64,000 nt of DNA from an uncultured delta proteobacterium. Lineage in GTDB: Bacteria > Desulfobacterota > Desulfobaccia > Desulfobaccales > 0-14-0-80-60-11. The stretch is from NCBI GenBank assembly GCA_963812015.1, contig CAWETI010000002.1:512001-576000 (forward strand), written 5' to 3'. Below are positions 22,509 through 27,109 of the stretch, in pieces (position 1 is the first letter of the stretch; each line of letters begins with the position of its first letter). Below the pieces are notes generated by a model. The model made no database searches. It had not been told where the DNA came from and saw only the letters and a list, made by a program, of their open reading frames with translations. The position numbers were made by a program, and so were the translations under genes.

Positions 22509-23672
22509 CTACGCCGGCTTGGCCCAGATGCCGGGGATGGCCGTGCCGCAAAAAGCGCAGTTGCCGTCCTTGAGGCTGATTTCGCCGATCTTGTAGCCCT
22601 GGCGGGCGATGATCATTTTTCGGCAGTTATGGCAGAAAGTATTTTCGGCCTCGTGGCCGGGGATATTGCCGAGGTAGACATACTGGAGGCCCGCTTTCAG
22701 GGCCAGGTCCCGGGCCCGCTCCAAGGTGCTCACCGGGGTGGGATAATGATTGAGCATCTTGTAGAGGGGATAAAACCGGGAGAAATGCAGCGGCGTCAGG
22801 GGGCCCAGTTCATCCTTGATCCAGGCGCACATGCGGCTGAGTTGGTCCGGGGCATCGTTGAACTGGGGGATGATGAGGTTGACGATTTCCAGGTGGACCT
22901 TATGGCGGCGCAGGATTTTCAGGGTGTTGAGCACCGGTTCTAGCTCGCCCCCCACCAGATCACGGTAGAATTTGGCGTCAAAGGCCTTGAGATCGATGCA
23001 GGCGGCGTCCAGGAGCCCGGCCAGTTCTTCCAGGGGTGGGCCATTGACGTAGCCCGCCGAATGGCAGACGTTCAGGATGCCCGCGGCTTTGGCCAGGCGG
23101 CCCACATCCCGCATATACTCGTAAAAGATGATGGGCTCCACATAGGTGTGGGCAATGGAGGGGCAGCCGTTATCCCGGGCCGCGGCCACCACTTTGGCCG
23201 GGGGCAGATCGAAGTTGTAGGTCTTTTCCGGACGGGTCTGGGAGATTTCCCAATTCTGGCAGAACTTGCAGTGCAGGTTGCAGCCGGCGGTGGCGATGGA
23301 AAAGGAGGAAGTGCCGGGGAGGACGTGGAACAAGGGCTTTTTTTCGATGGGGTCCAGGTGGACGGCGCAAGGGTTGCCGTACACCAGACTGTAATATTTG
23401 CCCTCCCGGTTCTCCCGGACGCCGCATTCCCCCCGGTCTCCGGGCATGACCTCGCAGTTCCTGGGGCAGAGCTGGCACTGCACCAGGCCCTGGTCCATTT
23501 GGCGGTAGAAGGCGGCCGGATGCGGCGCGATGAAGCCGTACTGCATCCTCTGGGCGCGGACCGGCGCCGGCCGGAGGGGAAGGGACAAGAGCGCCAGGGC
23601 CCCGGCGCTGCTCCGGATAAACGTCCGGCGGCTGCACCGCCAGTCACCTAAACCTTGCAACCCGGACTTCAT
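22509..23672 (-). CDS. amrS: AmmeMemoRadiSam-system radical SAM enzyme with twin-arginine-like leader
   Basis: CQLCPRNC...CGVR, DPIEKKPLFH, CNLHCKFC, PLHFSRFYP, YVYLGN. Confidence 0.9.
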   Translation of the reverse strand: MKSGLQGLGDWRCSRRTFIRSSAGALALLSLPLRPAPVRAQRMQYGFIAPHPAAFYRQMDQGLVQCQLCPRNCEVMPGDRGECGVRENREGKYYSLVYGNPCAVHLDPIEKKPLFHVLPGTSSFSIATAGCNLHCKFCQNWEISQTRPEKTYNFDLPPAKVVAAARDNGCPSIAHTYVEPIIFYEYMRDVGRLAKAAGILNVCHSAGYVNGPPLEELAGLLDAACIDLKAFDAKFYRDLVGGELEPVLNTLKILRRHKVHLEIVNLIIPQFNDAPDQLSRMCAWIKDELGPLTPLHFSRFYPLYKMLNHYPTPVSTLERARDLALKAGLQYVYLGNIPGHEAENTFCHNCRKMIIARQGYKIGEISLKDGNCAFCGTAIPGIWAKPA

Positions 23673-23812: not shown

Positions 23813-24097
23813 TCAGTCACCGTTGATGCGATTGCGCAGCACGCCGGAAGTTTTAAAGACCACTACCTTGCGGGCCCGGAGGATAAGGTTCTCCTTGGTT
23901 TGGGGGTTGCGTCCCCGGCGGGCGTTTTTTTGCCTGACCGAGAATTTTCCAAAGCCGCTGATGAGCAGGTCGTCTCCCTGGGCCAGGGACTCCTTCATAA
24001 TATCCAGGACCCGTTCCACCGTCGAACGTGATTCTTGCTTGCTCAAACCCACCTGCGTCTGTAAGCGGCTGATCAATTTTTCCTTGGTGAGGGCCAT
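23813..24097 (-). CDS. ihfA: Integration host factor alpha subunit
   Basis: MALTK, ISGFGKF, GRNPQT, RKVVVFK. Confidence 0.88.
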   Translation of the reverse strand: MALTKEKLISRLQTQVGLSKQESRSTVERVLDIMKESLAQGDDLLISGFGKFSVRQKNARRGRNPQTKENLILRARKVVVFKTSGVLRNRINGD

Positions 24098-24185
24098 AAC
24101 CTGATCTCCTCCGGCTATCCCGGTGAAATTACTTAATTAATTATGAAGGAAATCCGAGAGGTGTCAAGGTTTTTTTTCTCAAGGC

Positions 24186-25073
24186 CTAGACGGGGGAGGC
24201 GGCGCGCTTGATTTTGACCGGTTTACGCGGTGGCCGGCGGATGCCAAAATCCAGGGCGCTGAAGTGGCAGGCGTCCACGCAGCGCAGGCACATGATGCAC
24301 TCCCGGCTGTCGAATTCCTGGTTGGGCACGACCCCGGTGGGACACTTGCGGGCGCAGGCCCCGCATTCCACGCAGTTGCCTTCGATGAACTCTAACTGCA
24401 CCAGGCTTATCCGGCTGAAGAGGCTGTAAAAGGCGCCCAGGGGGCAGATGGTCCGGCAAAAAAACCGGCTGATGAGCACGGCCGCGACGAGGATGAGGAT
24501 GAGGATGGCGAGCTTGTTCCAGAAGAAAAAGGTCACGGTGGCCCACAAGCCGGGTTTCAGCAAGAGGAGGGGCATGGCCCCCTCCAGGGTGCCGGCGGGA
24601 CAGATGAGCTTGCAGAACCAGGGGTGCCCCAACCCGGAGCTATCCACAAAAAAGACGGGCATGGCCACCACCAGCACCCCCAGCACCGCGTACTTCACCC
24701 AGCGCAGGGGTTTCCACAAGAAAAACTTCCGGGTGGGGATCTTGTGAAGCAGATCCTGGATGAACCCGAAAGGGCAGATCCAGCCGCAGGTCAACCGACC
24801 CACCACGGTGCCGATAAAGCCTACATAACCCAAGACGATGGCGCCAGTCAGGGGGAATCCCCCCGTATTGAACCGCAGGCTGGCCATGAAATTCTGGAAG
24901 GCCCCCACCGGACAGGATAGCAGAGCCCCGGGGCAGGAATAGCAGTTAAGGCCGGGATGACACACCGCCTTCAACGGCCCCTGATAGATAACCGAGCCGC
25001 CGAAGGGGAACAGCAGGTAAGCGTTAGTCCCAAAGGCGACCAGGGTCTGGACCAACCACCTGAGGCGGTTCAT
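24186..25073 (-). CDS. Membrane-bound 4Fe-4S binding protein (NapH/MauN/YccM-like)
   Basis: CYSCP, CGWICP, CKLICP, CRTICP and two C-terminal CxxCxxCxxxC motifs; several TM helices; ATG overlaps the upstream peptide stop (TGATG). Confidence 0.9.
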   Translation of the reverse strand: MNRLRWLVQTLVAFGTNAYLLFPFGGSVIYQGPLKAVCHPGLNCYSCPGALLSCPVGAFQNFMASLRFNTGGFPLTGAIVLGYVGFIGTVVGRLTCGWICPFGFIQDLLHKIPTRKFFLWKPLRWVKYAVLGVLVVAMPVFFVDSSGLGHPWFCKLICPAGTLEGAMPLLLLKPGLWATVTFFFWNKLAILILILVAAVLISRFFCRTICPLGAFYSLFSRISLVQLEFIEGNCVECGACARKCPTGVVPNQEFDSRECIMCLRCVDACHFSALDFGIRRPPRKPVKIKRAASPV

Positions 25074-25204
25074 CAACCGACTCCGATGCAAGACAGGCAG
25101 ATGGTAGTGCCCAGGTTGAGTAGATAGGTCAGGTCACCGGTGTTAACCCCCAGGATGAATAAGGCGGTAAAGAGAATGATAAGCCAAAAGGATTTCTTCG
25201 GCAT
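25073..25204 (-). CDS. 43-aa CxxC membrane microprotein (CD1871A-like family), Cys form
   Basis: RBS GGAGG; MPKKSFWLIILFTALFILGVNTGDLTYLLNLGTTICLSCIGVG; stop overlaps the 4Fe-4S gene start. Confidence 0.88.
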   Translation of the reverse strand: MPKKSFWLIILFTALFILGVNTGDLTYLLNLGTTICLSCIGVG

Positions 25205-25323
25205 AAACAACCTCCCAGTGGAAATGGCCCCTGATAAATCGCCGCGCCGCCGAAGGGAAACAGGACTTTGGCGTTGGCACCCAACGCCATCAGGGGTTGG
25301 ATGAGTGACCAGAGCCTGGCCAT
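25129..25323 (-). pseudogene. Truncated duplicate of the 4Fe-4S gene 5' end; frame runs on into the Cys-peptide gene
   Basis: MARLWSLIQPLMALGANAKVLFPFGGAAIYQGP vs MNRLRWLVQTLVAFGTNAYLLFPFGGSVIYQGP, 21/33 identical by manual count. Similarity ends at about 25225. Confidence 0.8.
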
Positions 25324-25337
25324 CACCCCACCCCGAT
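25289..25337 (-). promoter_or_regulatory. Putative bacterial SECIS hairpin
   Basis: mRNA AUCGGGGUGGGGUGAUGGCCAG-GCU-CUGGUCACUCAUCCAACCCCUGAU folds as a long stem. It starts 10 nt after the UGA and has a G-led apical loop about 32 nt downstream. Confidence 0.7.
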
Positions 25338-25454
25338 ACAGGATAGTCAGATAGTGTTTCCCAGATTCATCAGGTATCCTAATTCACCACTGTTGACCCC
25401 GATAACAAATAAGATGGTGAAGATGATGATGAGCCACAAGGCCTTTTTGGGCAT
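25323..25454 (-). CDS. 43-aa UxxC selenoprotein microprotein (Sec paralog of 25073-25204)
   Basis: RBS GGAGG; MPKKALWLIIIFTILFVIGVNSGELGYLMNLGNTI-U-LSCIGVG. TGA at 25347-25349 aligns with the first Cys of the paralog. Confidence 0.85.
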
Positions 25455-25584
25455 GTTCCTACCTCCCGCCGGTTCAGGTTCACCATGGCAGGGTGATTGA
25501 TCGATCCCCTCATCTAGAGCTAATCACTATTATATCCATGGCCAAGCTTCCGGGGAAAAAATTTTTCCGGGTGAAGACAATTTC

Positions 25585-25614
25585 TTGACAAATCCATATA
25601 TATTAATATATATG
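25585..25614 (+). promoter_or_regulatory. Sigma-70 promoter overlapped by a 20-bp perfect palindrome (probable ArsR operator)
   Basis: TTGACA at 25585-25590; CATATATATTAATATATATG at 25595-25614 covers the -10 region. Confidence 0.7.
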
Positions 25615-25620
25615 AATATT

Positions 25621-25920
25621 ATGGAAGATGAATATTTGAAGGAATGGTTGGAGAGAGCGGCCCGATGCCTCAAGGTGCTGGCCCACCCCACCCGCCTGTT
25701 GATCATCCATCTCCTGGGCGATGGCGAGCTATCGGTGCAGGAGCTGGAAAAGGCGGTGGGGGTCAGCCAATCCAGCGTGTCCCAGCACCTGGGCCTGCTC
25801 AGGGACAAGGAGATCCTGGAATCCCGGCGGGTGGCCCAGCAGGTGTTCTACCGGCTGCGGGATCCCCGAGTGCTGCAACTGACGGCCCTTACCCGGGAGC
25901 TGTTCTGCAAGGTAGGCTGA
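25621..25920 (+). CDS. ArsR/SmtB-family regulator, BigR/SqrR-like Cys pair
   Basis: ARCLKVLAHPTRL, SQSSVSQHL, C-terminal LFC; possibly leaderless. Confidence 0.88.
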   Translation: MEDEYLKEWLERAARCLKVLAHPTRLLIIHLLGDGELSVQELEKAVGVSQSSVSQHLGLLRDKEILESRRVAQQVFYRLRDPRVLQLTALTRELFCKVG

Positions 25921-26014
25921 GGCGAGGGCCGCGGCGCCGGGCAGGTTACACGGGGAACACTTTCCTGAAATTCCGCTGAGTGAATTTCAGGATAATCTTA
26001 AGGAGAAAACCATT

Positions 26015-26464
26015 ATGTCTGCCGCACCGCAAAAAGATAAGGCCGCGTTTATCTGCTCGAGAGACACGTTGGACGGCGCCTATCCGCCGCTTATTCTGGG
26101 CATCAATGCCGCCCGGGCCGGCATGGAATCCAAGGTGTTTTTCACCTTTATGGGCATCAACCTGGCCTGCAAAGGTGGCATTGAAAAGGCCAGGTTTATT
26201 CCGCCCGGAGTCATGGGGGCGGTGCCGGGGATGTCCGCAATTGCCACCGGCATGATGAAGAAGAAGATCGACAAGGCCCACATCCCCTCCCTGCCGGAAC
26301 TGATGGAGATGGCTCAACTGGAAGGCGTGGAGTTGATCGTCTGCAAGATGACCATCGATATGATGGAATTAAATGAAGACGACCTGGTGGAGGGTTCCGT
26401 GGTGTGGACGGCCGAGGAGTTTATCAAATTCGCTAAAGACTGCAAGATCTGCTTGTTTATCTAA
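26015..26464 (+). CDS. DsrE2/DrsH-like sulfur-carrier protein
   Basis: FFTFMGIN, IPSLPELMEMA, IVCKMTIDMM, C-terminal LFI. Confidence 0.88.
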   Translation: MSAAPQKDKAAFICSRDTLDGAYPPLILGINAARAGMESKVFFTFMGINLACKGGIEKARFIPPGVMGAVPGMSAIATGMMKKKIDKAHIPSLPELMEMAQLEGVELIVCKMTIDMMELNEDDLVEGSVVWTAEEFIKFAKDCKICLFI

Positions 26465-26587
26465 GAGAACGCTCTGAGGTCAGGGCACCCCGGAGGGGAG
26501 ATTGAGGGGAGGGCGGGAAACATGGTAAAAAATTGCTCGGCCCGCCCCACGATGCCTGCTGTAGAGTTCTCAAGTCAGGAGGCGCGC

Positions 26588-27109
26588 ATGGGCAAGGCGG
26601 CGTTAATCGTGGCGGACATGCTCAATGATTTTCTGGACCCCCAGGGAGCCCTGTATGTGGGGCCCCAGGCCCGGGAGATCATCCCCTTTGTGGCGCAGAA
26701 GATCGCCGAGTTCCGGGCGCAGGAAGGGGTGGTGATCTTTGTCTGCGACGCCCACGCCCCCGATGACCGGGAATTCAGATACTTCCCGGCCCACGCGGTC
26801 AAGGGGAGCTGGGGGGGCGAAATCATCCCCGAGCTGACTCCTGGACCCGGCGACCACCGGGTGGAAAAGACCCGGTACAGCGCCTTTGCTCACACCAACC
26901 TGGAGGCTATTCTCCAACGGGAGCGGGTGGAGGCGGTGCACGTGGTGGGGGTGATGACCTCCATCTGCGTCATGGAGACGGTCAAGGAACTCTTCGACCG
27001 GGATCTACCGGCCCTGGTGTACCAACAAGGGGTGGCGGACTCGGACCCCGAGGCCCACGCCTTTGCCCTGAAACAGATGCCGCGGGTCTTTGGCGCGAAG
27101 GTGGTGTAG
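26588..27109 (+). CDS. Isochorismatase-family cysteine hydrolase (nicotinamidase-like)
   Basis: DMLNDF, DAH, PAHA, KTRYSAF, TSICV. Confidence 0.9.
   Translation: MGKAALIVADMLNDFLDPQGALYVGPQAREIIPFVAQKIAEFRAQEGVVIFVCDAHAPDDREFRYFPAHAVKGSWGGEIIPELTPGPGDHRVEKTRYSAFAHTNLEAILQRERVEAVHVVGVMTSICVMETVKELFDRDLPALVYQQGVADSDPEAHAFALKQMPRVFGAKVV

Follow-up and report, generated by a model that had tools for sequence, protein, structure and literature searches.

A probable selenocysteine form of a small CD1871A-like membrane peptide, with a candidate distal SECIS, encoded beside a NapH-like iron-sulfur protein in Desulfobaccales

The window, by which we mean the entire 64,000-nucleotide stretch of DNA analysed here, comes from an uncultured bacterium of the order Desulfobaccales. 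Its minus strand carries two copies of a gene for a 43-amino-acid CD1871A-like membrane peptide, upstream of a gene for a membrane 4Fe-4S protein. The first copy (25454 to 25323) encodes one N-terminal hydrophobic helix (residues ~5-23) and contains an in-frame TGA at codon 36 (25349-25347), giving a C-terminal U36-L-S-C39 motif if UGA is decoded as selenocysteine (Sec). The second copy, its Cys twin (25204 to 25073), instead encodes C36-L-S-C39, has its own GGAGG (25211-25215), and ends in a stop codon that overlaps the start codon of the partner gene (24186-25073), whose product is a membrane 4Fe-4S protein of 295 aa that resembles NapH/MauN and has 18 conserved Cys. Separating the two copies are 120 nt that duplicate, in truncated form, the 5′ end (the first ~33 codons) of the 4Fe-4S gene lying downstream. 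The locus is therefore a tandem in which a peptide and the 5′ end of its partner are followed by a peptide and a whole partner. The remnant (25217-25323) holds H2 and the 3′ arm of H1, two hairpins of this strand. H1 (25289-25337) covers the last peptide codons, the stop codon, and the overlapping AUG. H2 (25270-25288), a candidate SelB-binding SECIS, has an 8-bp stem and a G-GUG-C loop 66 nt past the UGA.

On the plus strand, a BigR-like ArsR/SmtB regulator gene (25585-25920; below cut-off), a DsrE2-like gene (26015-26464), and a further ORF (26522-27109) together form a group (25585-27109) that is divergent from the peptide operon. The divergent ArsR motif is found in most loci of the genus, and the ArsR and DsrE2 neighbors suggest sulfur-stress control that is possibly responsive to persulfide. 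Elsewhere on the minus strand, 22509-23672 encodes a radical SAM enzyme of the AmmeMemoRadiSam kind, scoring over cut-off, whose N terminus gives a weak match to a TAT signal (E 0.034).

A sequence-only reading of the window had proposed that two related ORFs lie here, with the TGA of one opposite a Cys of the other and with a GGAGG before the TGA ORF. Direct comparison of the two minus-strand ORFs confirms each of these points. The copies are identical at 31/43 amino acids and 91/132 nucleotides, the TGA aligns with the TGC for the first Cys of the twin, and the GGAGG (25462-25466) lies 7 nt upstream of the TGA ORF. A search with tblastn found no third copy in the genome. The seven residues past the TGA are the same in both copies, even though six of the seven codons differ synonymously. 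The same reading took this pattern as a sign of selection past the TGA. The pattern itself stands, but alone it does not exclude a recent nonsense mutation, which is excluded because the TGA copy is conserved across genomes. Contigs from two DNA runs of other studies (X4 record 28, 24883-25513; X2 record 22, 25158-25623) span the tandem, and no change at 25347-25349 appears among the 40 contig differences listed, with 487 further differences existing. Contigs from an RNA library (X16 record 13) span the peptide region (25266-25860); these come from relatives and may represent DNA.

Several lines of evidence support Sec insertion at codon 36. The genome carries selA, selB, selD, and tRNA-Sec, all above curated cut-offs, and its selD gene itself contains one TGA. 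We surveyed 69 genomes of the family and found a match to the peptide in 63. Within the genus of the window, 18 genomes were searched and TGA occupies codon 36 in 16 of the 17 that match (G006 has TGC, and G017 has no match). In a second genus, g16, TGA is present in 8 of 14 genomes, and a stop codon at this position occurs in 0 of the 32 matching genomes from 12 other genera of the family. Thus, both the machinery and the alternation of TGA with TGY at codon 36, two of the genomic checks suggested with the sequence-only reading, are borne out, as is its proposal of Sec read-through. The 26 TGA copies in 24 family genomes are related sequences rather than independent observations. Moreover, although selA is found in 23 of these 24 genomes, the single miss being a genome that is 56% complete, its presence does not discriminate because the gene is nearly universal in the family (64/69).

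Selection also extends past the UGA. Pooled Nei-Gojobori estimates of dN/dS are 0.056 for codons 37-43 in all 26 family TGA copies and 0.128 for the 16 Sec copies of the genus. In nine genomes of the genus, the peptide gene is present only as the TGA copy, which overlaps the beginning of an intact partner gene. Four features of bacterial selenoproteins, namely the machinery, a conserved UGA opposite Cys, selection past the UGA, and a conserved 3′ RNA structure, are present. On these comparative grounds, TGA36 almost certainly encodes Sec, and the ORF would be a genuine selenoprotein, a UxxC version of the CD1871A-like peptides.

The earlier assignment to a CD1871A-like family is upheld by size, motif, and gene position, with scores that fall below the family cut-off. 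Like the CD1871A CXXC proteins of model NF040920, both copies are small hydrophobic peptides with an N-terminal hydrophobic helix, a C-L-x-C-I-G-[IV]-G end that conforms to the pattern CxxC-I-G-x-G, and a gene located directly before that for the same 4Fe-4S protein. They differ in that the first Cys is replaced by Sec in one copy, whereas the library name of NF040920 makes no mention of Sec. Against a cut-off of 32 bits, the Sec copy scores 17.9 bits (E 0.0021) and the Cys twin 21.3 bits (E 0.00018). A homologue from the same order reaches 32 bits, and therefore the two copies are best described as divergent relatives rather than scored members of NF040920. When 12 Sec forms of other lineages were compared with this model, 11 gave weak matches and one exceeded the cut-off. 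No Pfam family was found for either peptide, NF045695 and the other listed models gave no match among the 13 Sec-form peptides scanned, and the ESM Atlas returned only clusters named 'hypothetical protein'.

Public collections do hold Sec forms, but as truncated products. Of ten that were looked up, eight are present and end at the UGA, as in the Clostridium tepidiprofundi member (RefSeq WP_278319537.1, 36 aa). None of the 120 homologues listed has a U residue; search tools convert U to C. The CD1871A-like family is absent from the table of 119 selenoprotein families in a 2026 review (PMC13188914), which includes the families of Haft & Tolstoy 2025. The available portion of bioRxiv 10.1101/2022.07.06.499078 likewise has no CD1871, and the supplements of PMC12013277 contain no matching motif. 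Literature searches found no paper on CD1871A, and no title retrieved for CD1871 concerned selenoproteins. In the PMC13188914 table, TsoA ('LULAxC') and further selenoproteins named by Haft are similarly small, contain UGA, and are missed by gene callers, but the motif spacing of TsoA differs from that of the Sec peptide. The Cys family has already been named, and its Sec counterpart is apparently both uncatalogued and widespread.

The extent of this family beyond Desulfobaccales was examined in two ways. NF040920 matches occur in 78 of 401 genomes of the phylum, and five weak matches from two other families carry TGA at the same Cys (selA in 5/5 of these genomes, tRNA-Sec in 4/5). A pattern scan of GTDB genomes gave at least 120 matches at no fewer than 119 loci, with family peptides called by a hydrophobic ORF or by a partner motif in the flank (motif in 72). 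Among the 120 matches listed, 92 are family peptides with TGA and 28 are chance matches. Of the 92 listed peptides, 14 are of the Desulfobaccales-family type (three of these records being titled Desulfobaccales) and 78 lie outside that family. Labels on the latter come from at least 14 phyla, and 36 are unlabelled. Sec machinery was checked for five outside-family TGA genomes. L193 and other weak cases may lack Sec.

In all 78 of the listed outside-family peptides, the best G-loop hairpin lies 17-18 nt past the UGA, across the stop codon. Such a proximal hairpin reaches -5 kcal/mol or lower in 68 of these 78; among the other listed matches it does so in one of the 28 chance cases and in none of the 14 of family type. 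The Sec copies of the Desulfobaccales family thus lack the proximal SECIS used by the outside-family peptides. In an unrooted tree of the partner gene (74 rows), they are nested in Cys-only clades, far from a large Sec clade. Because the Sec-linked partner rows do not form one clade in this tree (a single clade is rejected by the AU test, p 1e-46), the most parsimonious reading is that the Desulfobaccales-family lineage gained Sec separately from the other Sec clade.

What, then, might direct Sec insertion in this lineage? The sequence-only reading noted a long hairpin immediately after the TGA. A hairpin does begin 9 nt past the UGA, but there are two rather than one. An 85-nt stretch from the UGA folds as adjacent hairpins with an energy of -43.2 kcal/mol (z -4.39; 0/200 shuffles), compared with -28 kcal/mol (z -0.74) for the equivalent region of the twin. 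H1 is ~49 nt long, with a conserved stem and a variable loop. H2 is fully paired (8/8) in 26/26 TGA copies of the family versus 2/24 Cys copies (G006 and G467), a count restricted to the family since rows from other families lack an anchor. Its loop has the form G-G[U/G]N-C with a near-invariant G. Among 39 further metagenome copies, 36 have H2 paired 8/8 with a G[U/G][A/G] loop, two keep a 7-8 bp H2 whose loop is altered, and one is incomplete. Over 46 copies, which are related sequences from which the structure itself was drawn, H1 and H2 together have 96.3% of cells paired and five pairs changed on both sides (0/500 shuffles reach this), and H2 alone has 99.7% of cells paired and two pairs changed on both sides.

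The published bSECIS model calls for a loop of 3-9 nt with G in its first two positions, a stem of 4-16 bp, an energy of -7.5 kcal/mol or lower, and a loop 16-37 nt from the UGA (PMC13188914; the spacing likewise in PMC10778597). At least 78 loci of other lineages use a textbook element at 17-18 nt. H2 conforms to the loop, stem, G, and energy rules in 26/26 copies (-10.3 to -12.2 kcal/mol). It departs from the consensus in that its loop lies 59-67 nt from the UGA across copies, outside the canonical range, inside the next gene or its remnant, and beyond an intervening hairpin of ~49 nt. In the available text on BSepDB (PMC13326102), 87.4% of entries have a canonical SECIS and the rest are suggested to use uncharacterised features. 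Our literature search on SECIS spacing and coupling revealed no looped-out bacterial SECIS, judging by titles and the starts of abstracts. H2 was also considered as a transcription terminator, and it is not among the three terminator-like sites in 24000-25700.

It is reasonably likely that H2 is the SelB-binding site, and probably the long hairpin H1 is not. We propose that H1 would loop out its ~49 nt so that H2 is placed directly beside the base of H1, roughly 10 nt past the UGA, and could be bound there by SelB. Under this scheme, this lineage would have acquired Sec independently, with a SECIS built from the coding sequence of the next gene.

A different arrangement, in which the peptide is a real selenoprotein with an ordinary SECIS and SelB binds the apical loop of H1 at 29-31 nt from the UGA, would leave H2 to be kept for mRNA stability, ribosome pausing, or stacking support. 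H1 of this genome does satisfy the published constraints by itself (loop AGGCUCU at 29 nt, -7.7 kcal/mol). Furthermore, at the 16 other Sec-like codons checked in the genome, the G-loop hairpins lie mostly 17-26 nt away, and therefore SelB here uses normal geometry. However, while a G is present at position 1 or 2 of the H1 loop in 18/26 and 23/36 copies, the loop is without it in the remaining 8/26 and 13/36. In the seven tandem remnants, which are non-coding, the H1 loop is also the least conserved part, with a pairwise identity of 0.43 versus 0.89 for H2 and 0.58 for the region beyond H2. Finally, the Cys copies of g16 keep H1 but break H2 (6/8 paired), whereas three TGA copies nested among them have H2 paired 8/8; the H1 energy of the Cys copy G444 (-24.7) is the same as that of the TGA copy G440. 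We therefore regard the use of H1 by SelB as a serious but rather unlikely explanation.

The partner protein offers clues to function. Like NapH/MauN (TIGR02163), it contains a pair of CxxxCP motifs and ends in a 2x[4Fe-4S] domain, but it has six extra Cys on its outer face and scores only 75.6 bits against a cut-off of 213. Hydropathy, charge, and a structure model (pLDDT 82) together suggest that C38, C44, C47, C54, C154, and C158 are outside, that C96, C100, C206, and C210 are inside, and that the 2x[4Fe-4S] domain with its eight Cys is cytoplasmic. The UxxC of the peptide is likewise predicted to be on the outer face. Fold searches with the partner model and a sequence search of solved structures matched only the ferredoxin domain, a result by which the unmatched membrane part does not count as a new fold. 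A predicted complex of the peptide, the Fe-S protein, and four 4Fe-4S ligands scored 0.28 against a mark of 0.32, and is evidence neither way. When 8000 candidates were scored, no fusion of peptide and partner was found among 12 longer homologues. Longer forms of the family do exist as membrane proteins of 140-275 aa that have a CD1871A-like CxxCIGxG tail and are without an Fe-S domain (P0128-P0133).

Genes upstream of the peptide were surveyed at 94 chosen loci, eight of which have no upstream ORF. The resulting 86 ORFs include 15 redoxins, six CcsA proteins, six multiheme cytochromes, eight proteins with TPR only, and 14 Thiamine_BP proteins. The last of these (PF01910; L039-L063, 14 loci) lie upstream in many Cys-form loci. 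Nearly all of the redoxin and CcsA neighbors belong to the other Sec clade, and none were found upstream in the scanned loci of the Desulfobaccales family. Seven of nine inspected upstream redoxins themselves have TGA-xx-C. These TlpA-like redoxins precede the Sec peptide at L119, L138, L146, L154, L165, L170, and L174, and thus two-selenoprotein operons occur in KSB1, LCP-89, Zixibacteria, and unlabelled genomes.

DsbD and CcdA are transmembrane relays that pass cytoplasmic electrons to periplasmic proteins. There is about an even chance that the peptide is the redox arm of a comparable relay that is fed by ferredoxin and reduces thiols. The NapH-like Fe-S protein in the membrane would have the peptide as a small subunit. 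Ferredoxin-type clusters on the cytoplasmic side might send electrons through the membrane to the outer-face thiols of the partner, and the selenol/thiol pair of the peptide might then hand them to periplasmic thioredoxin-like proteins of the TlpA/ResA type. The presumed transfer to TlpA/ResA and the redoxin and CcsA neighbors resemble the DsbD/CcdA systems. In contrast with those systems, a NapH-like Fe-S membrane protein is paired here with a separate 43-aa U/CxxC peptide in an unrelated architecture, and the relay would be fed by ferredoxin-type clusters instead of thioredoxin. Weighing against the relay, the genome has two separate DsbD-type genes of its own, and the scanned upstream genes of the Desulfobaccales family include no redoxin or CcsA. 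The earlier suggestion of a membrane-anchored selenol/thiol partner for the 4Fe-4S protein is supported as a reading, with the physical partnership and redox role being what we infer.

The same residues could have another use. Rather than forming a redox-cycling pair, U36 and C39 might bind an Fe-S cluster that the peptide shares with its partner. In MvhD/VhuD, Sec serves as an Fe-S ligand. The six outer-face Cys of the partner and the two peptide residues make eight, enough for two clusters of a transmembrane wire. This count, the near-invariance of the residues, and the strict stop/start coupling of the peptide and partner genes in both Cys and Sec forms are all in keeping with a ligand role. 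However, at position 154 of the partner, Ser is found in 39 Sec-linked and two Cys-linked loci and Cys in 30 Sec-linked and 55 Cys-linked loci (redundant rows, confounded by clade). A Ser that occurs mainly in Sec-linked loci sits more easily with a dispensable resolving thiol than with a fixed ligand. The thioredoxin-like neighbors also point to dithiol chemistry. On balance, we consider a ligand role doubtful, and favor a redox-cycling pair.

The tandem occurs in seven genomes of the genus. The remnant is in frame here, but its frame is broken in six of the seven. On the peptide tree, the six twins that were included group as a single clade (100/99). Within the genus, the tandem appears to be the ancestral state because, in the partner tree, the single-copy genomes are a clade nested among tandem ones (99/96), and because the partner gene of G003 (L013) has an in-frame duplicated N-terminal segment, a collapse scar of a lost Cys twin. 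The tandem may have arisen by local duplication or by import of a Sec cassette. The neighboring Cys twin pointed out earlier does exist, but the tandem to which it belongs is specific to this lineage, and the twin is under weaker constraint than the Sec copy (dN/dS 0.275 versus 0.148 in a gap-free alignment from five tandem genomes). The CxxC has been lost in G001 and C39 in G016, and the twin has diverged in G002; nevertheless, the decayed twins keep their ribosome-binding site and stop/start overlap.

Perhaps the Cys twin serves as a selenium-independent peptide that keeps the partner translated through this overlap. If the SECIS lies inside the partner gene, then the duplication behind the Cys twin would have had to take part of the partner along, and the remnant would have been kept as a SECIS, only as an RNA structure. 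That the TGA copy is instead a dead duplicate, made by a TGC-to-TGA nonsense mutation beside a decayed 4Fe-4S piece, is suggested by its tandem position with a visibly decayed gene remnant and by the single change required, but this is highly improbable and largely refuted by the nine genus genomes with a sole TGA copy directly before an intact partner, by the greater constraint on the TGA copy in tandems, and by the same TGA with a classical SECIS in at least 78 loci of other lineages.

Considering all of the evidence, we favor the combined explanation that the peptide is a real selenoprotein, that its SECIS is H2, derived from the partner gene and brought into position by H1 looping, and that it is a subunit of an Fe-S redox relay, to which we assign a probability of roughly 60%. 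A fuller version is somewhat short of even odds. It holds jointly that a bacterial SECIS 59-67 nt away is looped out and evolved de novo from partner codons, that partner translation is selenium-dependent in single-copy relatives, that the family is uncatalogued, extends to at least 14 named phyla, and has its first-described member here, and that the relay is ferredoxin-fed and disulfide-reducing.

If these proposals are correct, then a widespread selenoprotein family is added whose members sit in public collections ending at the UGA, and a bacterial SECIS can work 59-67 nt from its UGA when an intervening hairpin loops out the distance. H1 and H2 would offer a concrete, short, and mutable candidate for a non-canonical SECIS class, with natural Cys/Sec switches as controls. 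The locus would also show a new Sec site recruiting its SECIS from a neighboring gene, and a pseudogene fragment kept for RNA structure alone. Because this SECIS would have evolved from the codons of the partner gene, translation of the Fe-S partner in single-copy relatives would depend on selenium. In addition, the peptide provides a way into the study of the Fe-S partner, an uncharacterised membrane protein that anaerobes commonly carry; no solved structure matched its membrane part.

The genome as a whole appears to be rich in selenoproteins, with at least 16 other Sec-like codons on contigs C2 and C3. By motif readings, except for SelD, which is a library match, these are HdrA-like (three), MvhD-like (four), MvhA-like, Fe-S oxidoreductase (two), thioredoxin-like (two), rhodanese (two), FdhA-like, and SelD. 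The rhodanese-like domain has two in-frame TGAs five codons apart (C3:238907 and 238892, minus strand) and lies directly upstream of a DsbD_TM match (C3:238071-238706), an arrangement that resembles the rhodanese/DsbD 'UxxxxU' TsoB entry in the PMC13188914 table.
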